Assembly (NCBI GenBank): GCA_004284765.1
Contig: NQJD01000019.1
Location: forward strand, 15,724-47,723
Direction of reading: 5' to 3'
DNA length: 32,000 nucleotides
Source of the DNA: Candidatus Electronema aureum
GTDB lineage: Bacteria > Desulfobacterota > Desulfobulbia > Desulfobulbales > Desulfobulbaceae
Within the stretch, counting starts at the first letter, position 1. Every line of letters begins with the position of its first letter. The notes below the pieces were generated by a model. That model did no database searches, had not been told where the DNA came from, and was given only the letters and a program-made list of their open reading frames with translations. Positions 2,154 through 27,250 of the stretch are shown in pieces. The translations under genes and the position numbers were made by a program.

Positions 2154-2213
2154 TCTTCATGATGCAGTTAAGGGGGTAGTTGATTGGGTAAAATTTTCTA
2201 CGGGAGAAGCAGC

Positions 2214-2744
2214 ATGAAATATTCCGTGTACCTGTCGGCAATAGCTTTGTTGCTGCTGGCGGCAAAACCATCAGCGGCACTTGCTTCTGGCAGTAAAACT
2301 GCTGCGGATGCGGCAGAAGCTGACAAAAAACTCCACGAAGTCTTAGTTTCCTACACCGCGCCTTTTCACCAAGTAGTGCTCACCAAAGACCTGCATCTTA
2401 CTGACACCGAGGAAGTGACTGAATACGATAATCCGGTTTCTTCGACCCCTTCAAAAACCGTCACGGTGAAAAAAACTGCCCAAATATCCAAGGAGCAGGC
2501 AGCAGAACTGTTGCTCTTCATCAAAGAAAACGGTTTTCATCAGCTCAAGGATGAATACGGAGCCGGGCCGCAAGAGCGCAACTATCCCTACACAATCCTT
2601 GTTCGAGAAGACGGAACGCGCGAAAAGCAAGTAGTTTATCGCAGCAACCCAGCAGCAGCGGCCCGCCCTAAGGCGTTTTCTCAAACGGAAAAAAAGATCA
2701 TCGAGTTCGCCAGCAAGGCGGTTCAACTCAAAACAGGAGAATAA
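2214..2744 (+). CDS. Secreted hypothetical protein (first gene of a three-gene periplasmic set)
   Basis: The ATG at 2214 is preceded by GGGAGA; the track's TTG at 2184 is less likely. The signal peptide is MKYSVYLSAIALLLLAAKPSAALA. The stop at 2742-2744 lies 1 nt before the next start. No family was recognised. Confidence 0.6.
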   Translation: MKYSVYLSAIALLLLAAKPSAALASGSKTAADAAEADKKLHEVLVSYTAPFHQVVLTKDLHLTDTEEVTEYDNPVSSTPSKTVTVKKTAQISKEQAAELLLFIKENGFHQLKDEYGAGPQERNYPYTILVREDGTREKQVVYRSNPAAAARPKAFSQTEKKIIEFASKAVQLKTGE

Positions 2745-2745
2745 T

Positions 2746-3699
2746 ATGAAAGCGGCAAAATTAGTGTTGGTTGCAGTATCTCTGCTGCTGTTCGCAGGTA
2801 CACTGTCCTCTGACTGGGCAGAGGCGCAGGGACGCAGACAGCGGGAAGCAGAACGCGAGGTCGAGGCAGGCGGCTGGCAGGTGGCCTATGGCAAGGAATT
2901 GACGGAAACAGATGCCGAGCAAGGTGAGGTCGCATCGGGAGTTTCCATTTTTGCCGGACGTGGCACAAGAGAAATGGGTGTGCTGCATAATTGGGCGGAC
3001 GCGCTGGTGCGGCAAGCAGTGGGCTTACTGCCACCTGCGGCGACTCGTGATTTTGAGCAAGAGGAGCGATTTCAGGCCATGCGTTTCACCGTGCGCACCG
3101 TGCGGGAGCTGCTGCGTGACAGACGTTCCGGCGTAAAGCAGATGGAACTCAATTCAGTGGAACTCAAGGTCGGTGTGCTGGAATACCGAGGCAGTCGCAG
3201 AGACAGAGAATGGGGTGCTGAAAGGGAAAGAAGATCAGATCTACTTTTTGTCCCTTATGTAGGAATGCGGGCAAAAGTAGATAAAGAAGACTGGCGCAGC
3301 GACCGTGATGAACTCCGTGAGCAGCGTGAGCCAAATGCCGCTTACGCACCGCCGGTCATTGATTCTCCGCATCAGTATCAACATGTGCCAATGGGACTGA
3401 GTTCTGCTGAAGTGATGAATGAGTTATCGCTCAACAACACTGCCCGCAAAATCAACGATAAACGCTGGGAGTGGACCGCTTACATTGACGGGCCTGCATC
3501 GTATCTGCGCCGGATCAGCTCGGTCACGTATTATCTACATCCTTCGTTCAATCCCAGCACCCAGCAGGGCGACCGCACTCGGCCCGGCCATCCGCTGACC
3601 GCAAACGGTTGGGGAGTTTTTGTTCTCAAAGCAGAAGTTGTTTTAGATGATGGAACACGCCGCATTTATCAACACCAGCTGCGACTTGGGCAGCTCTAA
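2746..3699 (+). CDS. Secreted protein: N-terminal domain paralogous to the next ORF plus a C-terminal YEATS-like (pYEATS) domain
   Basis: An AGGAG RBS precedes the start. The signal peptide is MKAAKLVLVAVSLLLFAGTLSSDWAEA. About 170 aa align with ORF 3763-4350 (EVEAGGWQVAYGKELTE vs EVEAGGWYVAYGNELTE; LLRDRRSGVKQMELNSVELKVGVLEYR vs LLGSRTSGAQILSLRSIEFKAGVMEYR). The C-terminal stretch KRWEWTAYIDGP..SSVTYYLHPSFNP..NGWGVFVLKAEVVLDDG..HQLRL fits the YEATS pattern W.W....(V.F.LH.SF)...GWG.F, judged from memory. Confidence 0.7.
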   Translation: MKAAKLVLVAVSLLLFAGTLSSDWAEAQGRRQREAEREVEAGGWQVAYGKELTETDAEQGEVASGVSIFAGRGTREMGVLHNWADALVRQAVGLLPPAATRDFEQEERFQAMRFTVRTVRELLRDRRSGVKQMELNSVELKVGVLEYRGSRRDREWGAERERRSDLLFVPYVGMRAKVDKEDWRSDRDELREQREPNAAYAPPVIDSPHQYQHVPMGLSSAEVMNELSLNNTARKINDKRWEWTAYIDGPASYLRRISSVTYYLHPSFNPSTQQGDRTRPGHPLTANGWGVFVLKAEVVLDDGTRRIYQHQLRLGQL

Positions 3700-3762
3700 T
3701 CCAATGCAACTTGGCCTTTTGATGTGTTGTCAGAAGGCCGCTAAAAATAACCACAGGAAAAG

Positions 3763-4350
3763 ATGATGAGAGCATCAAGATTGGTATTAGTCGCAGTGTC
3801 TGTGCTGCTGCTCGTTGCCGCAGCACAAGACGTTTTTGCTCAGAGAAGGTGGCGAGCAAAGGAAGAAGTGGAAGCGGGCGGCTGGTATGTAGCCTACGGT
3901 AATGAACTGACGGAAGGTGATGCTGCGCGAGGTAACGTGGAATCATGGGTTTCTTTGCAAAACAGTGACAGAGAGACCATCAGAACATGGTCTGACTCAT
4001 TGCTCCGGCAGGCTATTGCCTTGATGGTGAGCAATGCTGGCCCAGAGTCAGCAGACAGATTTGAGCGAGAGCATCAACGCGATGCGCGAAGATTCGGCGT
4101 TGAAACGCTGAGAGACTTGCTTGGCAGCAGGACTTCTGGCGCGCAGATATTGTCGTTGCGTTCGATTGAATTCAAGGCAGGGGTGATGGAGTATAGAGAT
4201 AGAAACTCAGATTACGGCAGGCGGCGGGATACCGTGTTCATGCCATACTTTGCCCTACGGCCAAAATATGGCCATCGCTCTCGTCATGATGGATATCGAG
4301 ATGACCGGGACGACTACAGACGGGATAGATACGACCGACGGGGATATTGA
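3763..4350 (+). CDS. Secreted paralog of the preceding protein, lacking the YEATS-like domain and ending in an Arg/Asp/Tyr-rich tail
   Basis: The signal peptide is MMRASRLVLVAVSVLLLVAAAQDVFA. Paralogy to 2746-3699 is clear over the N-terminal domain. The tail reads HRSRHDGYRDDRDDYRRDRYDRRGY. Confidence 0.7.
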   Translation: MMRASRLVLVAVSVLLLVAAAQDVFAQRRWRAKEEVEAGGWYVAYGNELTEGDAARGNVESWVSLQNSDRETIRTWSDSLLRQAIALMVSNAGPESADRFEREHQRDARRFGVETLRDLLGSRTSGAQILSLRSIEFKAGVMEYRDRNSDYGRRRDTVFMPYFALRPKYGHRSRHDGYRDDRDDYRRDRYDRRGY

Positions 4351-4373
4351 CAATTTGATCTGCTGAAGAGAAT

Positions 4374-4403
4374 AGAGGGTAGATGTAGAAATATCTGCCC
4401 TCT
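4374..4403 (+). terminator. Candidate Rho-independent terminator after the secreted-protein genes
   Basis: Arms agagggtagat (4374-4384) and atctgccctct (4393-4403) give 11 bp with one mismatch around an 8-nt loop. The hairpin is followed by gtttctgaattt. Confidence 0.4.
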
Positions 4404-4432
4404 GTTTCTGAATTTAGGAAAAAATATTCGAC

Positions 4433-7657: not shown

Positions 7658-10600
7658 TCAACTCCCCCGAATTAAATCGAGTAGCTCCTCTGCGCTCAGG
7701 CGCGCTCCTGCATCTGTACCTTCCAACAGCGAATTGGCTAAATTGCGCTTTTCGTGATGCAAGCGAACAATCTTCTCCTCAATCGTGTTAGCGGTGACTA
7801 AACGATATACGGTCACGGGCCGTTTCTGGCCGATACGATGAGCGCGGTCAGCAGCCTGATCTTCCACTGCCGGATTCCACCACGGGTCCATGTGGATGAC
7901 GTAATCCGCCGCTGTCAGGTTCAAGCCTAATCCGCCCGCTTTGAGGCTAATCAGGAAGAGATCGCCGTCGCCCGCTTGGAAGGCATCAACTTGGCGAATG
8001 CGCTCTTTGGCCGGTGTGGTGCCGTCGAGATACTTGTAATGAATGTTTTTGCTGTCCAAATACTCGCGGATAAGAGCCAGATGGCCGGTGAACTGGCTGA
8101 AAATCAAGGCCTTGTGCCGCGATGCCAGCAGTTCTTCCACAACTTCGCCAAAGACCTCTAACTTACTGGAAGGAATCTTACACTGCGCGTCAATCAGCTT
8201 AGGATTGCAGCAGGCCCGGCGCAGCCGCATGATTTCTGCGAGAATTTGCAAATGCCGCCCAGCTTTTGGGTCGCTGCCCTCAATGTTCTCCAAAGCCTGC
8301 TGACGAATAGCCTCGTAAAACATCATCTCCGATTTCTTCATTTCCACCCGCAGCGTGATTTCAGTGCGCGGTGGTAGCTCGTCTAAAACCTGCGACTTGA
8401 TCCGGCGGAGCATGAAAGGCCGAATCAATTTTTTGAGCTGGCGGCGGGCAATGCGGTCGTTGTGCTTCTCAATCGGAATGCCAAAGCGAGTGTTAAACTG
8501 CTTGTAGGTACCAAGCAATCCGGCATTGATAAAGTTGAACAAATTCCACAACTCTCCGAGATGATTCTCAATCGGCGTACCCGTGGTGATCAGGCGGAAC
8601 TTGGCCTTCAGGCGCATGGATGCCTTAGAACGCTTGGTGGCCGCATTCTTGATCGACTGGGCTTCGTCGAGGACGACTGTCTGCCAAGCCACGGTTTCTA
8701 ACAGTTCCACTTCTTGCTGAAGCAGAGTGTAGCTGGTAATCAGGATGTCTCGTTTACCCAAATTATCAATGATTCCTTGCCGCTCATCGGCATTGCTTAA
8801 CGTGCGGAGGGTCAGCGTAGGGGCAAAGCGGCCTACTTCCTGCTCCCAGTTCATGCAGACCGATGTGGGCGCGATAACCAGCGTTGGACCGTCTTCAGAG
8901 CGATCAAGAATCACCGCCAAGGATTGCAGCGTTTTGCCGAGACCCATATCATCGGCCAAGCAGCCGCCCACCCCAAGATGAGCCAGCCGAGACATCCAGA
9001 CAAAGCCCTCTACCTGGTAATCACGCAGATCGGCTTGCAAAGTAGAAGGGACTTCTGGCACAAAATCTTGGACAAACTCAATTCGGGCCAACTGCTTGCG
9101 CCAACCCTCATCAGCTTGGGTGTTGGCCTGTCGAGTCAAATCATCGAGTGCCAAGGCAGCCAGCGGATGAATGCGAATTTCATCATCACCCTCACCGGTT
9201 TTTCCGCCTGCCTCGCTGAAGCGGAGCAGCTCCTCTAAACGGCTACGAAATTCCTGAGTCAGGGCAAGAAACTGCCCCTTGCCAAGTGGAATAAAGCGGC
9301 TGCGGGCCTCGCGTACCTTGTCTAAGAGCGTTTTCAGGTCGATGATCTCATCCTGATCAACCTGAACATGGCCGGAAAGGGCAAACCAATCCTGCTGACC
9401 AGTGCGGATATTGAGGTTGAGCTGGCTAACTCCTGCCTGTTTGCGCACAGCCAGCTTCTCACCCTCTGGCCATTCCAGCACCGCCCGGTCGCGGATTTCC
9501 TCCAGCTCCAGCAGAGCTTGCAGGCATTCCTCTGGGTCAAGTAAATGCCACTCGCGGTCGTTTTCCTGCTCTAAATCCGTAGCGAGGTCAAGAATTGGGC
9601 AGCTTTCTTCGATTTCGCGGGCTTTTTCCTCTTCTATCGGCAGATTGCGACGAGTCTGCATCCGCCGTCCGCCTACTTCTGCCATCAAATTAGCCACACC
9701 TGCGCCGGGCTTGAGATACGGCCCTTTGCGCGAGAAAGGCTGAACAAACATCTCCAACCGGAAGCCGCTGCCGTAGGGGATGATGTGGATATGCACGGTG
9801 GGATCAGCCTCGACAATCTTGACATCCTTTTCCGCTGATCCTACGTCGATGGAGGAATGCACGGTCATAAAGGAAGCCATATTGCCGATAGCGTTCAACA
9901 CTTGGCTACCAGCGGCGGCTGGGTAGCGTTTACCGCCCGCCCCGATGATTCCGGCCACCCGCCGGTGCTCATCGTTGATTTCCATCACCCGGAAACGGGT
10001 CGGAGTTTCTTGCCAGACCGTCACTCGGCCTTCGCCGATTTCTTGGAGGAAATGAATGAAAAGGAAACCATCCTGTTCTTCAACCATCAGCTCCGGCTCG
10101 CCTGCCACAATTTCCACCGGTACGTTACCGGAATTCTCAAGAAAGACATGCGGGTGGCCAACCAAGGCAGGCAGTGCCTCCTCTATGTTGAATTCACAGC
10201 CACCGTTACGGGAATTCGGATCACCTACCTGACGTAACGCAGCAGCGATTTTAACGTCTTGGGCGGTAAGAAAGTCAAAGCAGCTGGGAGGCATCAACCG
10301 ATTGAGGCCAACCCCTTTACCCTTGCTCCATTTGCTACCCGGCTTTTTTTTCTGTTCCTTAGCGGCTAAGGTCAATGTACCTTCGGCGAATTCAACGGTC
10401 CAAGCAAGGCGGCTGGTTTTTTCTGGTTGTCTGGCCTTGCCGGTGACACTGATCAGTTCTTCTAAACTTTGCTTCCAAGATTCTTCGTTAGGCGCGACCA
10501 AATTGACAACGCTGCGGCAGCCAATTTCCTTGGCCAAACTTTCAGCGATTTTGACCATATCCTTACGGGAAGGATCAGCAGCAACCAGCAGCTGGGCCGC

Positions 10601-11824
10601 TTCCATTGCCAGCCAGAGGAAGCTGTTGCTCTTCGCCTTGCTACAGAGTAATTCTAAAGCGACCCGCAGCTTCTCCGGCAGCTGTACACCTAGCCAGTGT
10701 AGAGCCAATCCAGCGGTCAGGGTATTGAGGCTGCGCTCCTCTTTTTCAAAGCTCTCGGTCAATATCCGCATGTCAGGCAAGGCTCCTTCCATCGTGCCGA
10801 CATAGGTATCCAAAAAGCGGAAGGCCAGCTCATCCGGGCAGCCTTGGCAGCGGAGAACCAAAGCCACTGCCCGTCGGATTGCGGCGCGGTCGCCGGGGCT
10901 GCTGCGGGCGAGCAGAGCCATGATGCAAAAGAGGCCGCTGATATTGAAGAAGAAGCCACCTTCTGGCCCGGCATATTTGTTAAGCAGAGCTAAATCTTGC
11001 TCAAAGAGCTTCAGGGCTTCATCGGTGTGTCCCCGGAGAAAGGCCGCGCTGCCTGCAAAACCGGAACCTTGGAAGGAGTCGGCATGAGCGGTTATCAACA
11101 ATTCCAACTTACCGGTGCAGCCCCGCAGCAGATAGTGGCCAGCAAGCAAGCGACGAAAGGGGACGCGCTCATCCTCAGAGAGAAGTATTTTATCTTCAGC
11201 CTCCAGATACGCAGTTATCTCTGGATAATCTACGGCGTGCTCTGCCGAATAGCGGAAAATTTCGTTAAGCAGGTAAAATTGGAAAAAACCAGATAACCCT
11301 CGGAACCAATCCACGTCAAAGGTCTCAGCAACAATCTGTATCGCTGGCGGCGACCCGCCCTGTTCTTTGCATTGCTCTTTGAGGAAAAGGGCCGCCTCCT
11401 CCATTTTATCCATGTTGCTGGTGTGCAAGCCGATACGAAATTGGCGCAGGGCGCGGCGGCAGCGGGTTGACCATTTGCCATAGAGATAGGAGACCGGTGC
11501 CTTGTGTTCAATTAATTCGGCCAAAACGGTAAAACGCCCTTCAGCAGCAGCGTGCCGAGTCAGTTGTTCCGCTAACAGTGCCGTACACTGATTGAACTCA
11601 TTCAGCAGACCGATTTCACGCAACCTCGTCACCATGCTTTCTAACTCATCGCTACCTAAACGTCTAAGGCCGGGAAGATCGACCCCGGATAGGCAGGTGG
11701 CGAGAAAGGCCGCTGAAACAGGTTCGTAAATTACGGAAATGAAGGTAAGCAAAAATTGCTCCAAGGGCGGCAGGGTACGCACTAACTCCATTTGGCTCTT
11801 GTTCTGATGATCTAACGAGGACAT
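7658..11824 (-). CDS. SNF2-family helicase/ATPase (1388 aa) with a long non-catalytic N-terminal region
   Basis: The C-terminal ~480 aa carry SNF2 motifs: [10 protein letters not shown] (I), [11 protein letters not shown] (II), [18 protein letters not shown] (III), ALIFSQF (IV), and [44 protein letters not shown] (V/VI). The segment [20 protein letters not shown] resembles the bacterial SNF2-associated domain. Confidence 0.9.
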   Translation of the reverse strand: [1388 protein letters not shown]

Positions 11825-15854: not shown

Positions 15855-16688
15855 CTACTCCTGCGACTCCAAATACCAAGCATAGCGTGTTCTCAGGATA
15901 AGGCGCAGCACAGAATCCACCACCGCGCCGATCAGAACAATCCAGAGTACATAGGGAATGATCAGATCCATTGCCAGATAACGCCGCACCAGAAAGATGC
16001 GGTAGCCGAGTCCGTTGGTGGCGGCAATGGCCTCAGCCGCAATGAGGAAGAGCCAGGCTGGCCCCATATTGATCCGCACGGTTTCGATCAGGCGCGGCAT
16101 GATCTGGGGAAGCACGATACGGTAGGCCAAACTGGTTTGAGACGCGCCCAAGGTGCAGGCTTTTATGATCTGCTCTCGTGGTATCTTCTTGACCGTCAGC
16201 TGGATGTCTCTGGTAATGAGCGGAAAGGTGCCGATGAAGATCAGTACCACCTTGGCCAGTTCATCTACGCCAAAGACAATGAAGAGGATGGGCAAGACAG
16301 CCAGCGGCGGAATGATCGAGACAAAGGTGACAAAGGGCAAGAAGAGATGCTCCATGCCGATGAAGATACCAAGGTTTAAACCGCAGAGCAGGCCGCAAAG
16401 GGCAGCTATTCCTAGTCCTATGCCGATGCGCCGCAGGCTTGCGCCAGTGTCTGTCCAAAGCTGGTATTCGCCGGTGCGGGCATTCTCCTCGAACGCGGCC
16501 CGCTGCATGGCATCATACATCTTTGATGCAGTCGGCAGGAGCTTATCCGAGGGATTCTCCCGCTGCCGGGTATCTGACGCTAGGGCGTAGATGATGACCA
16601 GCAGCGCGAAAGGGATGATAGTCAGCAGCCAGCGCAACCAGTTGGGTGGCGAGGCGTGAATGCCAAGGAATTTAGGTGGGGTGGGCAT
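15855..16688 (-). CDS. ABC transporter permease (NitT/TauT-type, BPD_transp_1)
   Basis: The protein is a polytopic membrane protein with an EAA-loop-like region: LGASQTSLAYRIVLPQIMPRLIETVRINMGPAWLFLIAAE. Confidence 0.85.
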   Translation of the reverse strand: MPTPPKFLGIHASPPNWLRWLLTIIPFALLVIIYALASDTRQRENPSDKLLPTASKMYDAMQRAAFEENARTGEYQLWTDTGASLRRIGIGLGIAALCGLLCGLNLGIFIGMEHLFLPFVTFVSIIPPLAVLPILFIVFGVDELAKVVLIFIGTFPLITRDIQLTVKKIPREQIIKACTLGASQTSLAYRIVLPQIMPRLIETVRINMGPAWLFLIAAEAIAATNGLGYRIFLVRRYLAMDLIIPYVLWIVLIGAVVDSVLRLILRTRYAWYLESQE

Positions 16689-16709: not shown

Positions 16710-18458
16710 TCATCTTTCCCCATCATGCTGGGGAGCTTCCCATCTCTGTATTTTCTTCAGCATCTCTGGTTTGAAGTGCAGTTTCTCAATAAGATCGCCG
16801 CGCCGGAATGTGGCCGCCAAGCGTTGCAGACTGACATCCTGATCATTGTATAAAGCAAGGAGAGCTTCCTTGATCTTAGTTATTGCAGCAGAATGGTATT
16901 CATCGCCTTTGTTTTCAATCAGCTTGCGCGCATTTTCAAAGGTGCGATGGTCAAGCTGATTGAGCTGGATTCCCATTTCGGAAAGCAGTGAATCACCCAT
17001 AAGCATAGCAGCAAAGCAGGAAGAATATCTGATAAATTCTGGGGCATCAGCTTCTGGTCTTTTGCGTCTGTTCTCGGCTATCCTGAACAAGAGAACCGCA
17101 ATGATCACTTGGGCACCATTTAAGTCAGCAGTAAAAATAGTGTCATAAAGTTTTCCGAAATGCTCACCGGTCATGAACTTTGCTTGATGCGGACGATGCC
17201 GCCAAATGGAAAGCACAGCTTCAGCGGCTGTCCCGCTGGTGATGTCCGTATTTTTTGTAGCCACTTCGCTCCGCTGTCGTCTGTAGCTGTAGTCTAATTC
17301 CTTTATAGACAAGGCTAATTTTTGCTGCCGATCATCATTGGAACGCAAATCCCGCAGATCAACAGGATTCTGGCTGTTCGTCGCATACGTGATATTCCGA
17401 ACTAAGTCTTCCTCACCCTTTGGCAGCTCGTATATTCTGACAAGAACAGAGGCCTTCGGAGCAGTTATTGAACCAGAAGCAAGTTTCCGCTGAATTGTCT
17501 TACAGGTTTGCCCTCCGTTGATAATCTGCATTCCTGACAGTTTCACTGACCAATTTTCATCTTGCAAGGCATTATGTTGAAATTGGTTGCAGGTTAACGT
17601 AATCCCATTGTTATAAAAATAAAAATTTGGCTGCTCTTCTGGCATGGTCAGGGTGTAAGCGATGCCCTCATTGATGCGGTTACCCTGCAATCCAAGATAA
17701 CGCCGGATATTCCTCTCAAGGAGTCTGTCGCCATGCCTATCAAAGAGGGCAGCAAGCTCAGAAACCGCGATTTTACCCACTAAGACCCTGCGGAAATCAT
17801 AATCCTCAACAATGGCTTTGCCTGTAAGCCGGAGCGTGTCATTCACCGGTTTCAATGATTTAATTATCGCTACCAAGCTGTCATGATTGACATGCTCGAA
17901 CATAACCTGATCGCCAAAACCAGCATTTTCTATCAGCTCCTGCGCCTCGTTTTTCCAGATTGCTCCATTGTTGCAGGCAATGACTCTAACTTGCGGAAGA
18001 TATCCATCCGCAACGAATGAACGGATTTCTTCTATTCTTGGTTTCAGATTGGAATTCACCGTGATGGTTTTGTAGGGGTCAAAAAGTGTTCCTGCCGCTT
18101 GAATCAATTTCTCGATCCCTGTTTGCGGGAAGTTCGATTCGCCATCAAGATTGGATTTATATTTTCCTTGAAACAGGGTGACACCGAACTCGCCATCTTG
18201 AACTTCTCCAACTTCAACAGCATCAACTCCGAAATCCCCTCCGCCTTCGGTCAGACATTCAACCGCCTCCTCTTCGGTTAAATCCAACAGCGTCTTCACG
18301 ACTAAAACAACAAATGCCGCTGAACGCAATTTATCATCATTATTATTGAAGCCTACCTTTTCTTCGATTGTTGCTTTCTGGCGCTCGGCCAGTGCTCTTA
18401 CTTGCTGATCAATAATACTTGCGTTGATATTCACAACATCTTCTCCTTGTTCGAGCAT
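16710..18458 (-). CDS. AIPR-family (abortive infection phage resistance-like) protein
   Basis: The core AIPR pattern is LERNIRRYLGLQGNRINEGIAYTL...FYFYNNGITLTCNQF...MQIINGGQTCKTI. The N-terminal region has GGGDFGVDAVEV...FQGKY. The gene is visibly more AT-rich than both flanks. Confidence 0.82.
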   Translation of the reverse strand: MLEQGEDVVNINASIIDQQVRALAERQKATIEEKVGFNNNDDKLRSAAFVVLVVKTLLDLTEEEAVECLTEGGGDFGVDAVEVGEVQDGEFGVTLFQGKYKSNLDGESNFPQTGIEKLIQAAGTLFDPYKTITVNSNLKPRIEEIRSFVADGYLPQVRVIACNNGAIWKNEAQELIENAGFGDQVMFEHVNHDSLVAIIKSLKPVNDTLRLTGKAIVEDYDFRRVLVGKIAVSELAALFDRHGDRLLERNIRRYLGLQGNRINEGIAYTLTMPEEQPNFYFYNNGITLTCNQFQHNALQDENWSVKLSGMQIINGGQTCKTIQRKLASGSITAPKASVLVRIYELPKGEEDLVRNITYATNSQNPVDLRDLRSNDDRQQKLALSIKELDYSYRRQRSEVATKNTDITSGTAAEAVLSIWRHRPHQAKFMTGEHFGKLYDTIFTADLNGAQVIIAVLLFRIAENRRKRPEADAPEFIRYSSCFAAMLMGDSLLSEMGIQLNQLDHRTFENARKLIENKGDEYHSAAITKIKEALLALYNDQDVSLQRLAATFRRGDLIEKLHFKPEMLKKIQRWEAPQHDGER

Positions 18459-18526: not shown

Positions 18527-19588
18527 TTACAACTTCCCATCCGCTGCCATCTGCATATAAGTCTTGTCAAAGCGCAGCTTGACGTTGGCCTTGTCGCCCA
18601 GCACGGCACCGTCCGGGAAGGCGATGCCCACCAACTCCTTGCTCGGCGCGCCCTCGCCATACAGGCCATGCTCGAAGCTGAAGGAGCGGACATAGTCCAT
18701 CGTCTTCTTCACCTGCTCGCCCGCAGCAAAGGCCGCAGCCTCAGCAGGTGCATAGAACATCTTGGTGGTCTTGAGCTGCGCCTTGAACTCTGCCAGCGTT
18801 CCGCCTGCTGACTTTGCCATCACCTCCAAGGCCTCCTTGCTGCCTGCCGGGCTGTTCATCTTGGCCATTGCCTCATACCAAGCACCGGTGAGGGCCTTCT
18901 TCAGTGCCTCTGGTGCGCTGGACTTGACCACCAGACAGTCGATAATCTCCCCTGGAATCTGCGAGGAGTCGAAGACGAGGTTAGCCCCTTTGACGTTGCG
19001 CACCTGCATCAGCAATGGGTTCCAAGTGGTGACTGCTGCCTTAGGGTCTTTCTCCACTTCTGAGGCAAAGATGGAGGCGATGTCTGCGTCACTGGTGTTG
19101 ATCAGGGTCAGGTCTTTCTCCTTCATGCCGTTCATGTCCAGGGCGCGGGTCAGCAGGTAGTGAGAGACCGAGAGCTGAACAATGCGCATCTTTCGTCCGG
19201 CAAGGTCTTTCACCGAGCTGCCATTCATCAGGACAACCCCATCATTGCCATTGGAGAAGTCGCCGACGATCAAAGCCGTGGAATCCACGCCTCCCACTGC
19301 TGGGATGGTCAGGGCATCCATGTTGGTCATTACACAGCCGTCAAACTGACCAGAGGTATAGAGGTTGATGCTCTCGACATAGTCATTGACCAGGACGATC
19401 TCCACCTTGTCTAAGCCGTACTTCTTGGCCCACTTGTCCATGATGCCGGACTCCTGAATATAAGCCCAGGGTTCCCAGCCTGTGTAGTGCGACCAGGCAA
19501 TGCGGTGGGTGCTGCCAGCAATGGCTTGGCTGGCCAGCAAGACACTCACAGCAGCGGTGATGATCAGTGACCTGATTCCCTTCTTCAT
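18527..19588 (-). CDS. ABC transporter periplasmic substrate-binding protein (NMT1/TauA-like fold)
   Basis: An internal ATG at 19588 is preceded by GGAGAAAGG. The signal peptide is MKKGIRSLIITAAVSVLLASQAIAG. Motifs are RIAWSHYTGWEPWAY and NDYVESINLYTSGQFDGCVMTNMDALTIPAVGGVDSTALIVGDFSNGNDG. The track's longer ORF (to 19753) would overlap the upstream gene. Confidence 0.85.
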   Translation of the reverse strand: MKKGIRSLIITAAVSVLLASQAIAGSTHRIAWSHYTGWEPWAYIQESGIMDKWAKKYGLDKVEIVLVNDYVESINLYTSGQFDGCVMTNMDALTIPAVGGVDSTALIVGDFSNGNDGVVLMNGSSVKDLAGRKMRIVQLSVSHYLLTRALDMNGMKEKDLTLINTSDADIASIFASEVEKDPKAAVTTWNPLLMQVRNVKGANLVFDSSQIPGEIIDCLVVKSSAPEALKKALTGAWYEAMAKMNSPAGSKEALEVMAKSAGGTLAEFKAQLKTTKMFYAPAEAAAFAAGEQVKKTMDYVRSFSFEHGLYGEGAPSKELVGIAFPDGAVLGDKANVKLRFDKTYMQMAADGKL

Positions 19589-19601
19589 GGTTCCTTTCTC
19601 C

Positions 19602-20810
19602 TTAATCAATCTCAAGATACATAGCCGGGCTGACCTGATTGCCCCGCTCCAGCTTCTTCGTTGCCTCTTCGGTCTCGGTGGTGAGCCTGTCCATCTCCAG
19701 GAGGCTCTTTGCCATCTGCGGCAGAGCCTCTTGACGGAAGCGGGCGATATCATCTAGGGCACCGTGGATATCAGCAAATGCCTGCTTGAGCACCTGCATA
19801 TCAAGCTGGCTACTCGCGGCCTGCTTGTGGATTTCCACGCCCTGCTGCTGAAGCCGTTTGGCGGTGTCGCCAATCAGCTTGTTGGTGGTCGTGTTGACCG
19901 CCTCGATCTTACCCAGCACGATCTTCTGATTCGCCAGGGCTAGGGCCACGGTCACAGCCACGCTGAGGGCATTGACCGTCACGTTGACCGCCCGATTCAC
20001 GCCCCGGATTAGCTCTTTGTTGTTGCGCACGATGATCTCGATGGCCAGGACAGCTTGTTGATTAACAGCTAACTGCTGCTGCAAGTCCATCAGCCGCTGC
20101 CGGAGCGGAAAGAGCAGCTCCTCGTTGATAAAGCTGGCCCGTGGGTCATCGGAAGGGATGTCCTGCGCCAGCACCTGACTGAGTTTCTTGTCCAGCAGCA
20201 TCCCCAGATCAATCGACTTCCGCAGCTTATGGGTAGCCAGGCGGAGCTGCTTCTGGTCGTCGGTCAGGGTGAGGTTGTCCCGCTTGAGGGTGTCTGCGCC
20301 ACCGTGGAGGGAGCGGAGAATGGCATCCAGTACGGTCTGCGCACTCTCGAACTGCATAAAGTAGCGCTTGAGCGGCGTGCCAATGCCGGGCAGCGCACCC
20401 AGGAGGCGGGCGAACCAGCCCGGATCAAGGTTGAACTTCTGCGGGTCTAGCTCCTCTACCTTCAGGTTCAGGTTCACCAGGGCATTCGCCACCTCGCCGC
20501 CGTCCTCACCCTTTTGCGCTAGCTTGCGGATTGGCTCCCGCAACATGGCACTGCGCAGGGCAGAATCCTTCTGGGCCTTCGCACCGAGGTTGTCGATTGA
20601 GGCAATATTCTGCTGCCTGATCTCTATCTGGGTAGCATCCTCCGGGTTAATGGCGAGGATGTTGGCAACAAACTCATTCGCCATCTTCTCCAGTTCTGGG
20701 TCGGCAGCCTGAACTGGTGCCAGGCTGATCGGATCAACCAGCCCTAGCTCTGCGCTCAATCTCTGCTCATCAACCTTGACCAAGCCTTTTTCCTGCACTG
20801 TCTCTGCCAT
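19602..20810 (-). CDS. telA: TelA-like toxic anion resistance family protein
   Basis: An internal ATG at 20810 is preceded by AAGGAGA. The helical protein carries TelA-like stretches: DNLGAKAQKDSALRSAMLREPIRKL, LKVEELDP, LKRYFMQFESAQTVLDAILRSL and TLKRDNLTLTDDQKQLR. Confidence 0.78.
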   Translation of the reverse strand: MAETVQEKGLVKVDEQRLSAELGLVDPISLAPVQAADPELEKMANEFVANILAINPEDATQIEIRQQNIASIDNLGAKAQKDSALRSAMLREPIRKLAQKGEDGGEVANALVNLNLKVEELDPQKFNLDPGWFARLLGALPGIGTPLKRYFMQFESAQTVLDAILRSLHGGADTLKRDNLTLTDDQKQLRLATHKLRKSIDLGMLLDKKLSQVLAQDIPSDDPRASFINEELLFPLRQRLMDLQQQLAVNQQAVLAIEIIVRNNKELIRGVNRAVNVTVNALSVAVTVALALANQKIVLGKIEAVNTTTNKLIGDTAKRLQQQGVEIHKQAASSQLDMQVLKQAFADIHGALDDIARFRQEALPQMAKSLLEMDRLTTETEEATKKLERGNQVSPAMYLEID

Positions 20811-20850
20811 CTCCCTGTCTCCTTTGCTGTTCCTGTTGAACGGCTTGAAC

Positions 20851-20910
20851 AGGGTACCTATCAGCCTGTCTGGAGGGTACCCTGTAGAATATCTGGAGGG
20901 TACCCTCCAG
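20851..20910. repeat. Phased array of three GGTACC-centred sites in the XpaC-like/TelA-like spacer, including a perfect 18-bp palindrome
   Basis: GTAC cores lie at 20854, 20877 and 20900, exactly 23 bp apart. The 15-nt direct repeat tctggagggtaccct occurs at 20869-20883 and 20892-20906. ctggagggtaccctccag (20893-20910) is its own reverse complement. Confidence 0.75.
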
Positions 20911-20917
20911 CGATACT

Positions 20918-21751
20918 TCAATACTGCCGAGCGCGGACTGCCACCTGCTGGAGCTGCGCAATGGCGGCCTCGAAATCGCCTTGCGCCAACGCGGTGTTGG
21001 TGGACATCGCTGCCACTGCTACCACGGTCTCTTCCAGGGCAGTCATCGCCTCCTCGTTGGCCGCCAGCAGTTCATTCACCCGCTCTAGCTGCTCGCAGCG
21101 CAGCTTGCTCCGACGGATGAGGGTTTCTCGCTCCTTGCGGTCAGCCTCGTTGGTGGGTTCCTTTATGCTGGCAAGCTGCTTATCAATATAGTCGAGATCA
21201 ATACCGCCGACACTTTCCAGCAGGACAATGATGCGTTGCAGGGTATCCAGACTGCCGAGATAGACCTGCTCTGCTGCGCCGAGGAAACGCCCGTAGGACA
21301 GCTCGCCGTGCTGGAACCGTGTTGCCAGCAGGCTGCCCAGCTTGTCGAACTTGACCCGCATCCGCTCGAACTGCTCCAAACCCTGCTCGGCATACGCTTC
21401 GGCACCGGCAATCCGCTCCGCCTGTTGAAGGCTGCGGCGCAGGCCCTCAAGCATCTGCGCTTTCTGTCTCTGGCTACCCTCGACAAGCTGCTGAAGATAG
21501 CTCGCCGAGAGTGCCTCACCCCGGAAGAAGATATTGACAATAGCACTGCCCAAGCCCACGGTCAGCCCGCCCAGCAGACCGAGGTAAAGCAGAGGCGTGT
21601 TGAAGAGATAGGCGGCAAAGCCGAGCGGCAGTGCCAGGGCAGGCGGGTAGAGGGTCAGCCAGTGGGTCAACCCCTGCCAGACCACATGCCCTTGAATGGC
21701 ACGCTGGCTGAAGTCTTGCAGCTTGGGCGGAGATGGGGGAGTGGACTGCAT
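20918..21751 (-). CDS. 2-TM membrane protein with a long coiled-coil C-terminal region (XpaC-like partner of TelA)
   Basis: Two hydrophobic helices (LYPPALALPLGFAAYLF and LLYLGLLGGLTVGLGSAIVNIFF) are followed by a helical region. The architecture and position next to TelA match the XpaC/TelA pairing known from Bacillus (xpaC-yaaN). The family call rests on architecture only. Confidence 0.55.
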   Translation of the reverse strand: MQSTPPSPPKLQDFSQRAIQGHVVWQGLTHWLTLYPPALALPLGFAAYLFNTPLLYLGLLGGLTVGLGSAIVNIFFRGEALSASYLQQLVEGSQRQKAQMLEGLRRSLQQAERIAGAEAYAEQGLEQFERMRVKFDKLGSLLATRFQHGELSYGRFLGAAEQVYLGSLDTLQRIIVLLESVGGIDLDYIDKQLASIKEPTNEADRKERETLIRRSKLRCEQLERVNELLAANEEAMTALEETVVAVAAMSTNTALAQGDFEAAIAQLQQVAVRARQY

Positions 21752-21784
21752 TGGCTCAGAATTCCTGTTTAGCGGGCGATAAGG

Positions 21785-21824
21785 TTGTCAGCATGTTGAC
21801 AAGCAGCCTGATTGTATATACAGT
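21785..21824 (+). promoter_or_regulatory. Candidate brnTA promoter/operator
   Basis: An inverted repeat TTGTCA-gcatgt-TGACAA (21785-21802) overlaps a TTGACA -35 (21796-21801). A 17-nt spacer leads to TACAGT (21819-21824). The ATG at 21830 has no SD upstream, which suggests a leaderless or near-leaderless mRNA. Confidence 0.4.
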
Positions 21825-21829
21825 AAACC

Positions 21830-22102
21830 ATGCGCTACGAATGGGACGAAAGCAAACGAGCTGCCAACCTTGCCAAACACGGTGTGGACTTCCACAAGGC
21901 CGAACAGTTCGAGTGGATAACAGCGGTCGAAGCCAAGGACAACCGTTTCGACTATGGCGAGGAACGCTGGATTGCGCTTGGTATGATTGGTAATCGTCTT
22001 CATGTTCTCATCTATACCATCCGGGGCGACAGCATCCGTCTCATCAGCCTGCGTCGGGCCAACCCTCGCGAGAAGGAGCATTATGAACAAGCAACGACCT
22101 GA
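21830..22102 (+). CDS. brnT: BrnT-family ribonuclease toxin (DUF497)
   Basis: The sequence reads MRYEWDESKRAANLAKHGVDFHKAEQ...ERWIALGMIGNRLHVLIYTIRGDSIRLISLRRANPREKEHY. Confidence 0.85.
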   Translation: MRYEWDESKRAANLAKHGVDFHKAEQFEWITAVEAKDNRFDYGEERWIALGMIGNRLHVLIYTIRGDSIRLISLRRANPREKEHYEQATT

Positions 22103-22364
22103 ACATATCTCCCAAGAGGATTGGGATGCTGTTGATTCTCCTCCCTTAGATGACTCCCTTCTTGCTGCTATGAAACCGGTGAGGATGGAGCATCCCGACA
22201 TTCCGCCACGGGTGCGCGGCCCCCAGAAAGCAGCAAGGAAAGCCGCTGTCTCCATCCGGCTTGACCAGTCCGTTGTTGAGTCCTTCCGGGCTACGGGTCG
22301 CGGTTGGCAGGCCCGTGTGAATGACATCCTGCGGGACTGGCTCAAGGAGCACAAACCGGCCTGA
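22083..22364 (+). CDS. brnA: BrnA-family antitoxin
   Basis: The ATG at 22083 overlaps the brnT 3' end by 20 nt. The C-terminal pattern is KAAVSIRLDQSVVESFRATGRGWQARVNDILRDWLKEH. Confidence 0.85.
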   Translation: MNKQRPEHISQEDWDAVDSPPLDDSLLAAMKPVRMEHPDIPPRVRGPQKAARKAAVSIRLDQSVVESFRATGRGWQARVNDILRDWLKEHKPA

Positions 22365-22376
22365 GCCAGTCCCTGT

Positions 22377-23912
22377 TCACATATCTTCCCTGACCAGCAC
22401 CAGTTCCACGCGCGGCAGGCGGTACTCGTAGGTGCGCAGGGACTCGCCGGGCTGCTGGGCAAGCGGTTTGGTGCCGCCTAAGCCCAGAGGCCGGACGCGG
22501 TTGGCATCCATGCTGTGGGTGATCTGCAAGTAGCGGCTGACTGCTTCTGCCCGTTCTTGAGAGAGGCGCAGATTCTCGTCTGCGTCCCCGCGCACACCTG
22601 TATGTCCCTTGATGACAATACGGAAGTGGGGATAGTGACTGAGCCGGGCCATTGCGGTGTCGATGGTCTGCTTGCCGAGGACATCCAAGGTGGCTGTGCC
22701 TTGCTGGAAGATGATGGGATCAATCTTCAAGGTGCCGACCTCCTTGAGCGCATCCCAGCCTGCGTTGTCAAGCGGAGCAAATGCAGTAGCTCCAGCCGAA
22801 GAAGCCTTCTCGCCGGACGCGGCAAAGAGTTCTTCAAGAAAGCCTTTATTGGTAAGCCGGTAAGGGTTGCCGTCCGGTACTGGGCTGGCGGTGAAATCCC
22901 CTGCATTCACCAGTATCTCTGCTGCCGATTCGATGGCCGCAACCAAGCCTTCCTCCCCTGCCCCGCCTGCCGCAGCGATGCCAAACCACTGCTCGCAGTT
23001 GTCTGCCAGAGAGAGCCAGTCCACGCCCTTGAGCATGATACGCACCGGCTCTTCAGCGAGGCCCGTTTCCTCCTTGATGTGGCGGATGAATAGCCCCTCT
23101 TCTTGGCGGTACTTCTTCAGCACCTTGAAGTAGGTGGAGAGGAAGAGCTTGACGATGTCGGGGTTCTTCTGAGCAAAGTCCCGGCGGACCAGCAGCACGT
23201 CTACAATCAGTCGCTCTGTATCCTCAGTGCCAAGCAGCTTCACTATCCCCTTCTCCTGAAGGGCCTTGGTGACATCCGGCTCCCAGAGCACAGCCACATC
23301 AGCCTTGCCGGAGAGCAGGGCGTTCTTCGCCTGCTCAGAGCCGTTCACGGCCAGACGCAGAGGGCCAGACGCAGGATGCAGCTCCTTGACATTGAAGTGA
23401 TCTGCTGCTGCCTTGGCCAGATGTTCGCTGGGACTGGCTGGAGTGAAGGCAACCTTAGCATCCAGCTTGCCCTTCAGATCATCAAGGCTTGCCACTCGGT
23501 CTTTGCGGGCAAGGATGGCATCGCCGCCCTTGGACTCGTCGAGTACCGCAACAATGACCGCAGGATAGGCAAACCGCTCGGCATTGAGGAGGTAGGAATC
23601 CACCGTGGCGACAGCGAAATCAAGTTCTCCCTTCTCAAGACGCTCCATGCGGCGGCGATAATCAGCCTTGTCGTCCTCCCAGGCCAGCAGCCAGCCCGCC
23701 CGGTGCATCGCGCTCTTCATCTCTGGTGAGCGCAAGGGGAAGTAGCCAATCCAGTTGTCCAAGGCGATGCGGAGCTTACCCTGCGTCTGGGCTGCATCGC
23801 TGGTGGTCTGCTGCTTGCGGTCAAGCAGCTTAGGTAGAAGTAGCCAGATGCCGTAGGTGACACCAAGGCCCAACAGGAGCAGCAGCAGGGCACCAATCAG
23901 CCTGGCCTTCAT
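22377..23912 (-). CDS. Membrane-anchored SBP-fold (NMT1-like) domain fused to a C-terminal OmpA_C peptidoglycan-binding domain
   Basis: The N-terminal anchor is LIGALLLLLLGLGVTYGIWLLL. The SBP-like region reads LRIALDNWIGYFPL...DFAVATVDSYLL...DESKGGDAIL. The OmpA_C region reads IIFQQGTATLD...IVIKGHTGVRGDADENLRLSQERAEAVSRYL...LPRVELVLV. The start overlaps the upstream stop (ATGA). Confidence 0.8.
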   Translation of the reverse strand: MKARLIGALLLLLLGLGVTYGIWLLLPKLLDRKQQTTSDAAQTQGKLRIALDNWIGYFPLRSPEMKSAMHRAGWLLAWEDDKADYRRRMERLEKGELDFAVATVDSYLLNAERFAYPAVIVAVLDESKGGDAILARKDRVASLDDLKGKLDAKVAFTPASPSEHLAKAAADHFNVKELHPASGPLRLAVNGSEQAKNALLSGKADVAVLWEPDVTKALQEKGIVKLLGTEDTERLIVDVLLVRRDFAQKNPDIVKLFLSTYFKVLKKYRQEEGLFIRHIKEETGLAEEPVRIMLKGVDWLSLADNCEQWFGIAAAGGAGEEGLVAAIESAAEILVNAGDFTASPVPDGNPYRLTNKGFLEELFAASGEKASSAGATAFAPLDNAGWDALKEVGTLKIDPIIFQQGTATLDVLGKQTIDTAMARLSHYPHFRIVIKGHTGVRGDADENLRLSQERAEAVSRYLQITHSMDANRVRPLGLGGTKPLAQQPGESLRTYEYRLPRVELVLVREDM

Positions 23913-24700
23913 TGCTGGAACGTAGCGACATCAAAGGTTTCTGCTTCGGCCAGCACATCCGCCAAACCTTGGCGCAGGGCAGCAGGATTATCCGCTGCCT
24001 TATAGACGGTGCGGCCTGGCATGTTAAGGGCGTGATCCGTGCCGATGCAGAAGCCGATGGTGTGCAGCTCTACTGGGGTGTTATCCAGCATCCAGCGGAC
24101 TTTCTCTGTAGGATCATGGCCCGGATTTGCCTGTCCATCTGTGACCACCACCAAGACGTAGCGGCCATAGCCGAGCTGACGCATGGCCTGCTGCTCAAGC
24201 TGGGCATAACCTGCGCTGATTGCCTCGTGCAAGGGCGTACCACCAGCCGCAGAGGCAGACTGCACCTGCTCGGCAAGCTGCTGCCGGTTGCCAGTGCCTA
24301 TAGGCACCAGTTCCCGAATTTGGCTGTCAGTGAAGATCAACATCCCAAGGTTTGCATCTGCTGGCACACTGGCAGCAAACTCCTTGAGCGCGTTCTTGGC
24401 GGTCTCGATCTTGCTCTGATTGCCCGAACACTGGCGTTCAAGCATGGAGCCGCTGCCATCCAGCACGACATAGTAGTTGTCAGCTAACAGGTTTGGGGCC
24501 AGCACTGTATTCCCATTTGGTGCAGGCGGCCAAGGCAGGGCGAGTGGCTTTTGTGCGGCAGCGACCGGAACAGTTTGACTTGCCGCCTTTGCTGCGGGTA
24601 GATTGCTCTGCTTCGGCTGCTGTGCGTCCTTGCAAGCAGCAAGCCCACTGACCAAGATCATCGCGCAGAGCAAGGGCAGCATCTTCTTTTGCGTCCTCAT
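23909..24700 (-). CDS. vWA-domain lipoprotein
   Basis: An internal ATG at 24700 is preceded by GAGGGG. The lipobox signal is MRTQKKMLPLLCAMILVSGLAAC. The MIDAS motif is YYVVLDGSGSM, followed by ...GGTPL...VLVVVTDGQAN. The track's longer ORF (to 25048) overlaps the upstream gene and reads as noise. Confidence 0.8.
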   Translation of the reverse strand: MRTQKKMLPLLCAMILVSGLAACKDAQQPKQSNLPAAKAASQTVPVAAAQKPLALPWPPAPNGNTVLAPNLLADNYYVVLDGSGSMLERQCSGNQSKIETAKNALKEFAASVPADANLGMLIFTDSQIRELVPIGTGNRQQLAEQVQSASAAGGTPLHEAISAGYAQLEQQAMRQLGYGRYVLVVVTDGQANPGHDPTEKVRWMLDNTPVELHTIGFCIGTDHALNMPGRTVYKAADNPAALRQGLADVLAEAETFDVATFQQ

Positions 24701-24710
24701 ATCATGCCCC

Positions 24711-26429: not shown

Positions 26430-26512
26430 GAAATCTCCTCTCTTCCGGTTTGCAAGGATTCTGAAGATACAGGCGGATTCGCTCTCGCCAGCACCTTCCT
26501 TGTCGCCGGAAG

Positions 26513-26539
26513 ATTCTCATGAAAGTCGAGAGCTGTCAA
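26513..26539 (-). promoter_or_regulatory. Weak candidate promoter for the SBP-OmpA/vWA operon
   Basis: The minus strand has a perfect TTGACA (plus 26534-26539) preceded by AT-rich ttttataaaaga. The -10 is poor: GAGAAT at 15-nt spacing or GAATCT at 17. Confidence 0.3.
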
Positions 26540-26708
26540 GTCTTTTATAAAAATGGGCAGCGCGATCAATTTGAGTAAGTAAGCCTGTTTCGCTGAAGCC
26601 TTGAAAAACATGCTTGCGCAACGCCCGCAAATATGGTTCTGATACGGGTGCGGCGCAGCGGTGTTCCGCTGCCCTCTGTCACCCAACTCACATTTGCGAG
26701 GTTTGATT

Positions 26709-27236
26709 ATGGAAGAAACAAGTTGGATTGCTGAACTGTTTGCCAATCTCTTTGTGCGCGGACTGTTGGTTGGTCTGATTGTCGCTTTGGCTTTCTGGGT
26801 TCGCTCAATCATCAAGGTGCGGGTGCTGCACGCCGATCTGCGCAAGCTGCGCGAGCATCTTCAGACTAAGTTTGAGATTGAATCAGCAGAGAACGAGCGG
26901 CGCAAGGAGGAGATGAATCAACTCCGGCAAGAGCGCGATAACCTCCGCAACATGATTCAGGTCTTGAACCAAAAGCCGAACAAGCAGGAACTTCGTCAGG
27001 CCCAAGTCTATCAGAAGGCAGCGGAGATCATGTTTGAGAAATCGCCCGGCTTTGCCCCGGTCTGGCAGATCACCCTGCGTGAGGCTGAGGAAGAGATGCG
27101 CAATGCAGAGAAAGGCATTATCCCCTTCTTTAAGCGGATTACTTCCAGCACTCCAGTTGCCACGCACTCTTCTGAGCAGAAAATGCAGTCACACGGCAAG
27201 CATCGTCTTGAGTTAGACGACCCGGCCAATCTCTAA
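26709..27236 (+). CDS. Single-pass membrane protein with cytoplasmic coiled coil (hypothetical)
   Basis: The ATG at 26709 is preceded by GAGG. The TM helix is LFVRGLLVGLIVALAFWV. A heptad-rich segment follows (LRKLREHLQTKFEIESAENERRKEEMNQLRQERDNLRNMIQVL). No family was recognised. Confidence 0.6.
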   Translation: MEETSWIAELFANLFVRGLLVGLIVALAFWVRSIIKVRVLHADLRKLREHLQTKFEIESAENERRKEEMNQLRQERDNLRNMIQVLNQKPNKQELRQAQVYQKAAEIMFEKSPGFAPVWQITLREAEEEMRNAEKGIIPFFKRITSSTPVATHSSEQKMQSHGKHRLELDDPANL

Positions 27237-27250
27237 GGAGTAGCGACATC

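Follow-up and report, generated by a model that had tools for sequence, protein, structure and literature searches.

The 32,000-nucleotide stretch of Candidatus Electronema aureum contig NQJD01000019.1 analysed here (the window) carries, downstream of the 3' part of a hybrid histidine kinase gene (positions 1–2153), a cassette of three genes: ORF1 (2214–2744), ORF2 (2746–3699) and ORF3 (3763–4350). All are on the plus strand, in the arrangement described by a first-pass annotation of this DNA. Judged by profile matches and a modelled fold, the C-terminus of ORF2 is a true pYEATS domain, and export of the three predicted products via the Sec pathway is well supported by their N-terminal sequences. 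On balance, this pYEATS domain probably anchors ORF2 to the envelope by binding an acyl-amide group, with a disordered linker tethering the other domain of ORF2, designated here the N-domain. The pYEATS family itself and the RefSeq label of the ORF2 orthologues are already known; the N-domain family, the kinase-linked cassette of cable bacteria and the numerous extracytoplasmic pYEATS domains with intact cages are new.

The pYEATS domain of ORF2 and its cage

ORF2 encodes a two-domain protein of 317 amino acids (aa), comprising the N-domain and the pYEATS domain (aa 227–314, positions 3424–3687), the latter recognized by Pfam, phmmer, Foldseek and hhalign. Residues 241–312 match the Pfam pYEATS family (PF20305) with 57 bits (cut-off 26.9; E = 1.8e-15), nearly end to end (model positions 1–72 of 73), and the eukaryotic YEATS family (PF03366) is matched with 34 bits (cut-off 22). 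Precomputed matches to both families are present in all 28 full-length ORF2 homologues. The phmmer search against PDB sequences recovers human YEATS2 (E = 5e-5), with LHPSF of ORF2 aligned to LHPSY and GWGVF to GWGEF. The motifs LHP[ST]F and GWG.F of the pYEATS family are conserved; ORF2 differs from the family model in its added signal peptide, unannotated N-domain and disordered linker, and in its position in a hybrid-kinase cassette.

The AlphaFold2 model of this region (aa 220–312) is a beta-sandwich, with 10-residue block means of the predicted local distance difference test score (pLDDT) of 86–96 over aa 221–310. All 50 PDB matches listed by Foldseek are YEATS structures (Yaf9, AF9, ENL, YEATS2, GAS41, and Taf14), with E values of about 1e-5, a probability of 1.0 and target-normalised template modelling (TM) scores mostly of 0.5–0.6; the superpositions cover about 100 columns with a root-mean-square deviation (rmsd) mostly of 2.5–3.5 Å. 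The YEATS-like C-terminus noticed in the first-pass annotation is therefore borne out by both profile and fold comparison. Like the eukaryotic YEATS domains of AF9, ENL, YEATS2, GAS41, Taf14, and Yaf9, the ORF2 domain has an Ig-like beta-sandwich and seven of eight cage positions, but it is about 30 residues shorter and does not keep F28 of AF9. The eukaryotic proteins are nuclear and work with chromatin, whereas ORF2 is predicted to be exported and has no chromatin partner.

The ligand cage of AF9 reportedly comprises H56, S58, F59, G77, Y78, A79, and F81, a list ascribed to the work of Li and co-workers (Li et al.) from 2014. The AF9 sequence was confirmed to be identical to the AF-9 chains in PDB and was then aligned to the family profile with hhalign; in this alignment the listed residues correspond to H265, S267, F268, G288, W289, G290, and F292 of ORF2. 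The serine-lined aromatic cage of AF9 has been summarised in a review (PMC8556138). The cage is largely retained among the 86 nearest pYEATS-only cluster representatives, a sample biased to relatives of the query: H is kept in 82, S or T in 82, F or Y in 85, G in 78, W or Y in 84, G or A in 83 and the final F in 85. Six of the seven positions are among the 12 most conserved of the 97 domain columns (P = 6e-6). The eighth cage residue, F28 of AF9, is not conserved and aligns to K239, leaving seven of eight positions equivalent; the neighbouring position 241 (W241 in ORF2), aromatic in 83 of the 86 relatives, may substitute for it. Among ORF2 orthologues, mean pairwise identity is 67% in the pYEATS domain, 52% in the N-domain and 34% in the linker. 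Since the cage columns and the pYEATS region are the best conserved, the pocket is under strong purifying selection, and its ligand is presumably shaped like an acyl-amide.

Such a pocket could also make ORF2 a true reader of acyl-lysine on periplasmic or envelope proteins, as eukaryotic YEATS domains are for acetylated and crotonylated histone lysine (Kac/Kcr). Consistent with this, the full cage is kept, including the hydroxyl residue and both sandwiching aromatics, and bacterial acyl-lysine readers are listed as an open question in a review of 2021 (PMC8556138). This explanation is nevertheless unlikely: the periplasm has no known acyl-CoA or acetyl-phosphate donor, genes for a writer or eraser are absent from the vicinity, and F28 of AF9 is replaced by K239, even if the aromatic residue at 241 may compensate. 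In addition, the fusions of related pYEATS domains to LysM and to secreted peptidases, described below, suit binding of glycans or of substrates in general at least equally well.

Predicted export of ORF1–3 and of pYEATS relatives

Export was assessed by a home-made scan for n-, h- and c-regions, which covered ORF1 and 44 proteins of the ORF2 and ORF3 families. Their n-regions contain one to three Lys or Arg residues, except for one truncated member with none. In all 44 members and ORF1, an uncharged stretch of 14–27 residues with a hydrophobic core follows, and a small-x-small site precedes polar or charged residues; a second hydrophobic segment is found in none of them. In ORF2 the predicted Sec-type signal peptide (aa 1–27, positions 2746–2826) reads MKAAK, LVLVAVSLLLFAG and TLSSDWAEA, followed by QG. 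The predicted cuts fall between ALA and SG in ORF1 (signal peptide aa 1–24), between AEA and QG in ORF2, and between VFA and QR in ORF3 (signal peptide aa 1–26). No twin-arginine motif and no lipobox cysteine are present in ORF1–3, and all three proteins are devoid of Cys. These features agree with the three signal-peptide proteins of the first-pass annotation and, on this heuristic, point to Sec-dependent export.

Of the 86 pYEATS-only relatives, 76 have Met as their first residue, and signal-peptide-like N-termini are seen in about 60 of these, a count that, given the bias of the sample, yields no proportion for the whole family. The earlier view that a secreted pYEATS protein is a new context is thus not upheld. 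Pfam partners in this set comprise Peptidase_C1 (nine proteins), M10 (three), C39_2 (three) and astacin (two), and also trypsin, S46, M48, LysM, PAN, TIG, Rib, and CarboxypepD_reg, while TIR_2 and an HMG box occur once each. Many of the relatives are proteins of about 220 aa in which two tandem pYEATS domains follow a signal peptide, WP_169350828.1 of Pyxidicoccus fallax being one. The metagenomic protein P0066 has an HExxH peptidase behind its signal peptide, followed by three pYEATS domains spaced by Pro-rich linkers. These secreted multi-pYEATS proteins and pYEATS peptidases are the nearest relatives of the ORF2 domain and resemble ORF2 in their signal-peptide-like N-termini, in the C-terminal placement of pYEATS behind flexible linkers and in the same cage. 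They differ in that a peptidase or tandem pYEATS domains replace the N-domain, and they have no known linkage to a kinase or an ORF1-like gene.

Two further metagenomic proteins carry related domains on other architectures. P0068 (149 aa) lacks the N-domain and has its pYEATS domain, 54% identical to that of ORF2, behind a signal peptide and a linker. In P0029 (439 aa), a pYEATS domain with 56% identity to that of ORF2 follows an N-terminal region that contains HExxH. The pYEATS module of the Electronema lineage has evidently been shuffled among carriers.

Cytoplasmic pYEATS proteins fused to TIR domains, given in the first-pass annotation as an example of the usual cytoplasmic fusions, do exist: two such genes were found in Gammaproteobacteria, in a metagenome-assembled genome (MAG; locus L013) and in Wenzhouxiangella (L014). 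Their pYEATS domains have the same motifs and are 36–38% identical, but these proteins have no signal peptide, carry pYEATS at the N-terminus and a TIR-like domain at the C-terminus, and adjoin a second TIR-like ORF. None of these features occurs in the window. TIR is found in only one of the 86 nearest relatives, and pYEATS-TIR proteins are more distant relatives of ORF2, not the nearest type.

The occurrence of pYEATS-TIR genes is the starting point for an interpretation of the cassette as a conflict or defence module akin to the cytoplasmic systems. ORF1 and ORF2 do diverge faster than their housekeeping neighbours (55–58% identity in strain JM, against 85% for PNP), and cable bacteria are multicellular. 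However, Pfam detects no effector domain in ORF1–3, be it TIR, nuclease, NTPase or another, and PADLOC returns only a weak match to RT_UG26 for ORF1 (E = 0.0012, 15.7 bits) and a receiver-domain-like match in the kinase, neither of them meaningful. The proteins are predicted to be exported, the cassette keeps a stable position beside the same kinase across species, and TIR is as rare among the nearest relatives as noted above; a defence role is barely credible.

The Electronema orthologues are named 'pYEATS domain-containing protein' in NCBI/RefSeq and UniRef. A literature search on pYEATS and prokaryotic YEATS found no description of a bacterial YEATS function and no experiment on pYEATS, and no paper connecting YEATS with cable bacteria. 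In Kaur et al. (2020), the only use of the word YEATS is as the name of an author, and one supplement file of that paper does not contain it; the locus is not mentioned in the cable-bacteria papers checked, including PMC11976967.

The N-domain, ORF1 and the proposed anchoring role

The N-domain of ORF2 (aa 35–178, positions 2848–3279) has a paralogue in ORF3, a protein of 195 aa. Residues 35–177 of ORF2 and 32–168 of ORF3 are 45% identical (E = 5e-33), which defines a shared domain of about 140 aa and agrees with the tandem paralogues recognized at first sight. In the AlphaFold2 models the N-domain has a pLDDT above 90 (ORF3 model: mean pLDDT 87.6, predicted TM score 0.76) and an alpha/beta order of two strands, three helices and three long strands. 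Its motifs in ORF2 are EVEAGGW.VAYG, ELTE.DA, G.V..GVS, FKAG..EY, and F.PY. The conserved positions are mainly Gly, Trp, Pro and aliphatic residues, with E51, D53, S64, K138, N148, Y162, and R166 (ORF3 numbering) as further ones, and the conserved columns contain no obvious catalytic set.

As stated in the first-pass annotation, this domain matches no described family. Pfam and NCBIfam searches of ORF1–3 and 46 N-domain homologues gave matches to partner domains only, a profile of the 46 homologues found nothing among PDB sequences, and the search of the ORF3 model against the viral library BFVD gave no significant match. The best PDB matches of this model in Foldseek are PAS domains, at E values of 0.12–0.18, a probability of 0.5–0.57 and an rmsd of 8–9 Å. 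Because this similarity is insignificant, with only the order of strands and helices alike, a PAS, Cache or GAF fold was not adopted. As significant sequence and structural relatives are lacking, any role of the N-domain is a guess.

When 1.84 billion cluster representatives were searched exhaustively with a profile, 1323 matches reached E ≤ 0.001. The best 150 of them include 45 proteins that have the N-domain and no pYEATS; about half of the 45 have signal-peptide-like N-termini and about a dozen start straight with the N-domain. Its C-terminal partners outside the Electronema cassette are RicinB lectin, B_lectin, hemopexin, PLAT, SH3_3, DUF1036, and DUF7477, and the named sources include Desulfococcaceae and Ca. 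Electrothrix gigas. By these sequence data, the N-domain represents a new and fairly widespread domain family that is not private to the Electronema locus and merits a database entry. The metagenome context of the distant genes (nine loci, mostly on short contigs) shows no recurrent neighbour. In a single instance, on a peat metagenome contig (L017, 786–2477, minus strand), a distant N-domain gene adjoins an ORF of 563 aa, the N-terminus of which, by eye, presumably resembles the activation domain of pro-kumamolisin (S53 peptidase).

The two domains of ORF2 are joined by a linker (aa 179–226, positions 3280–3423) that is rich in R, D, E, W, and P and predicted to be disordered, with pLDDT below 50 at aa 182–214 and a length that differs among species in the alignment. 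ORF3 lacks a pYEATS domain and ends in a tail rich in R, D, Y, and H (aa 169–195). Taken together, the low-complexity linker and the ORF3 tail (4267–4347) are rich in R, D, E, W, Y, and H, and both vary strongly in length and sequence among Electronema species, one example being RDRDSRDDHRWNKDERRG in E. halotolerans.

ORF1 (176 aa) comprises one conserved domain of about 130 aa behind its signal peptide. In Pfam, ORF1 scores 24 bits for DUF6438, for which the cut-off is 30, and similarly weak, sub-threshold DUF6438 matches are obtained with 14 of 16 family members; one homologue matches Emfourin (E = 4e-4, below the Pfam threshold), and the ORF1 profile has no match among PDB sequences. Profile-profile comparison showed no relationship of ORF1 to the N-domain (hhalign probability 0.3). 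The ORF1 gene directly precedes the pYEATS gene in the loci for which gene coordinates were read, with a spacing of 1–4 nt or an overlap. In the window the ORF1 stop codon lies 1 nt ahead of the ORF2 ATG, and this suggests that the two are translationally coupled.

The Emfourin and DUF6438 matches would fit a protease-related pair, in which ORF1 acts as an inhibitor or chaperone of the Emfourin/DUF6438 type and the origin of ORF2 lies in secreted peptidases tagged with pYEATS. Fusions to peptidases are indeed numerous among related pYEATS domains, and P0029 pairs its HExxH region with the pYEATS domain of 56% identity. Such a pair is very unlikely, however, as the N-domain of ORF2 has no conserved His/Cys/Ser catalytic pattern and no peptidase match, the ORF1 matches are sub-threshold in Pfam, and the ORF1 profile finds nothing in PDB.

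In the envelope-anchoring mechanism that is considered probable, ORF1–3 would leave the cytoplasm by the Sec pathway, and the pYEATS domain of ORF2 would dock outside the cytoplasm on a short acyl-amide group. The target could be an envelope protein that carries acyl- or acetyl-lysine, or else peptidoglycan or an envelope glycan, bound by its acetamido group. In their terminal chemistry, the acetamido groups of amino sugars and acyl-lysine are the same. The disordered, charged linker would keep the N-domain close to the docking site. The N-domain, in which no catalytic-type residues are conserved, is probably a binding or oligomerising module and most likely acts together with ORF1, as the coupling of the two genes indicates. 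ORF3 would be a copy of the N-domain without a tether. The N-domain, ORF1 and ORF3 would form the functional part of the system and may pass information to the kinase. The comparisons show gene structure, export signals, paralogy, the YEATS fold, the conserved cage and synteny, and the taxonomic restriction; from them we infer the docking role, the class of ligand, the ORF1–ORF2 partnership and any signalling link to the kinase.

The glycan reading of the ligand is indirectly favoured, since the partners of the N-domain are mostly lectin or cell-wall-binding domains and fusions to LysM and secreted peptidases occur among the pYEATS relatives. In other bacteria the N-domain precedes lectin, SH3, hemopexin or PLAT domains, and related pYEATS domains, commonly in tandem and preceded by Pro-rich linkers, are attached to secreted peptidases and to LysM or PAN; this is the usual deployment of surface- or substrate-binding modules.

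Several points weigh against the anchoring role. To our knowledge, the reading of acylated lysine on nuclear proteins is the only function of YEATS domains established by experiment. The cassette itself holds no gene for an acyl-lysine writer or eraser, the N-domain has no significant sequence or structural relative in the PDB profile search or in the Foldseek searches of PDB and BFVD, and one locus with the cassette (L011) has no kinase upstream. The export scan is a crude heuristic: membrane anchors at the N-terminus are also picked up, as seen with other proteins of the window used as controls, and it gave one false positive, an SNF2 helicase, among about ten cytoplasmic controls. Signal-peptide cleavage of ORF1–3 is predicted, and periplasm, outer membrane and medium are all candidates for their final location.

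The cassette and the set of exported pYEATS proteins provide candidate domains of about 90 residues that are easily expressed and have an intact reader cage. Their presumed action outside the cytoplasm, where no acyl donor is known, makes them unusual, and the identity of the ligand would point either to extracytoplasmic protein acylation in bacteria or to the use of the YEATS cage as a binder of acetamido groups or glycans.

Kinase linkage, distribution and other genes of the window

The kinase part encoded in the window comprises GAF, PAS, HisKA, HATPase_c, and REC domains according to Pfam. The frame stays open up to base 3 of the window (open frame 3–170), so the N-terminus lies beyond the 5' edge. 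Orthologues of the kinase are 806–991 aa long and have an N-terminal MASE3 membrane domain; tblastn identity across the loci is 61–98%. The linkage to a hybrid kinase suspected initially is conserved: the order kinase-ORF1-ORF2 is found in 11 of the 12 distinct loci having upstream sequence, one member being just 41% identical, with L011 as the exception. Genes downstream of the cassette vary by locus (PNP, PHP, OEP/VIT1, and PRAI). An ORF3-like paralogue follows ORF2 in strains F5, PJ, JM, JC, V4, and UBA5173, in locus L029 and on the metagenomic P0002 contig, and is missing from E. halotolerans.

In E. halotolerans (L001, 4072–5483) and on the P0002 contig, two extra genes are located between the kinase and ORF1. 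They code for an unannotated protein of 157–166 aa and a TPR protein of 313 aa, and neither is present in the window.

The start of ORF1 is more likely ATG 2214 than TTG 2184, because a database protein of 176 aa identical to the translation begins there and GGGAGA is located 7–12 nt upstream. RNA folding shows no hairpin at the kinase-ORF1 junction. ORF2 and ORF3 are separated by 63 nt holding a 12-bp hairpin (3712–3740; −17 kcal/mol, z = −2.2) that lacks a U-tract downstream and might act as a partial attenuator or stabilise the mRNA. ORF3 is followed by a 15-bp hairpin and the U-rich GUUUCUGAAUUU (4372–4405; z = −5.7, with none of 200 shuffled sequences folding as well), likely an intrinsic terminator that ends the cassette. 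The tight spacing, the lack of a hairpin between kinase and ORF1 and the terminator-like hairpin past ORF3 indicate that the kinase gene and ORF1–3 probably form one transcription unit. Rfam and tRNA scans of the whole window detected no RNA genes.

The adjacency of kinase, ORF1 and ORF2 in 11 of 12 loci despite varying flanks, together with the uninterrupted kinase-ORF1 junction, also suits ORF1–3 as periplasmic co-sensors of the MASE3 kinase that bind an envelope or periplasmic cue through pYEATS or through a PAS-like N-domain, the strand and helix order of which resembles PAS, and thereby tune the activity of the kinase. CpxP of CpxA, TorT of TorS and LuxP of LuxQ are accessory periplasmic proteins of two-component sensors. 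Like CpxP, TorT and LuxP, ORF1–3 are small, predicted exported proteins beside a membrane histidine kinase, with conserved adjacency; but they have no sequence or fold relation to these proteins, and MASE3 is not known to bind periplasmic partners. MASE3 is not known to have a sizeable periplasmic domain that could offer a docking site. The two genes intervening in E. halotolerans and on the P0002 contig, the kinase-free locus L011 and the insignificance of the PAS resemblance (E = 0.12) also speak against co-sensing, and adjacency could mean mere co-regulation. A co-sensor role is somewhat unlikely, though it is compatible with docking by pYEATS, to which it adds a signalling output.

A broader proposal is that exported YEATS domains form a widespread class of extracytoplasmic acyl-amide readers, with ORF2 reading a mark in the periplasm shared along the filament and ORF1 and ORF3 helping to report it to the MASE3 kinase. 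If true, this doubtful proposal would imply a reader-based signalling pathway of the envelope, analogous to the reading of chromatin in eukaryotes.

All named ORF2 homologues belong to Candidatus Electronema or to 'Desulfobulbus sp. F5', which corresponds to E. nielsenii F5 (97% identity). In a pattern-based scan that covered each GTDB species by one genome, six Electronema genomes and two Desulfobulbaceae MAGs were the only ones with full-length relatives of ORF2. ORF1 homologues are nearly restricted to the same lineage, with one distant homologue in Leptospiraceae in an unrelated context. Thus, the ORF2 family is restricted to Candidatus Electronema and close relatives, and the cassette is lineage-specific for freshwater cable bacteria; for the Electronema envelope it is a marker at the level of the genus, and it is possibly a sensory module. 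Ca. Electrothrix sp. AR3 (L024, 297–1874, QYKU01000007.1) has an ORF1-like gene, a gene for an N-domain protein of 282 aa and a separate pYEATS fragment of 56 aa. The latter pair is an ORF2 gene split by a frameshift, either an assembly error or a pseudogene.

This restricted distribution, with the family found only in Ca. Electronema, the two Desulfobulbaceae MAGs and Ca. Electrothrix sp. AR3, could be taken to indicate a structural or assembly factor of the cable-bacterial envelope, with its shared periplasm, ridges, conductive fibres and junctions. The R/D/Y/W/H-rich segments would then touch fibres or metals, and predicted export and the aromatic- and charge-rich low-complexity segments fit this idea. 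It is nonetheless quite improbable. A core conduction component is expected in both genera of cable bacteria (a premise of PMC11976967), but the pattern-based scan found no full-length orthologue in the marine Electrothrix species representatives. Moreover, the proteins have no Cys and no haem- or Ni-binding motif, and no paper linking YEATS and cable bacteria was found. Overall, the defence, conductive-fibre and protease-inhibitor readings are less likely than the envelope-anchoring role of pYEATS.

Elsewhere in the window, the minus strand encodes an SNF2-family helicase of 1388 aa (7658–11824), the first approximately 900 residues of which have no Pfam match, and a 582-aa protein of the AIPR (abortive-infection) type (16710–18458; PF10592, E = 7e-50). 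The AIPR gene is flanked by genes for an ABC-transporter permease (15855–16688) and an NMT1-like substrate-binding protein (18527–19753), and looks like a defence gene inserted in a transporter cluster. The GC content rises from about 0.51 to 0.56–0.59 at approximately 19000–29000 and is 0.41 in the last kilobase. The GC-rich region contains a minus-strand cluster coding for TelA (19602–20921), two unannotated ORFs, a substrate-binding/OmpA fusion (22377–23912), a vWA protein (23909–25048) and another NMT1-like protein (24711–26429).

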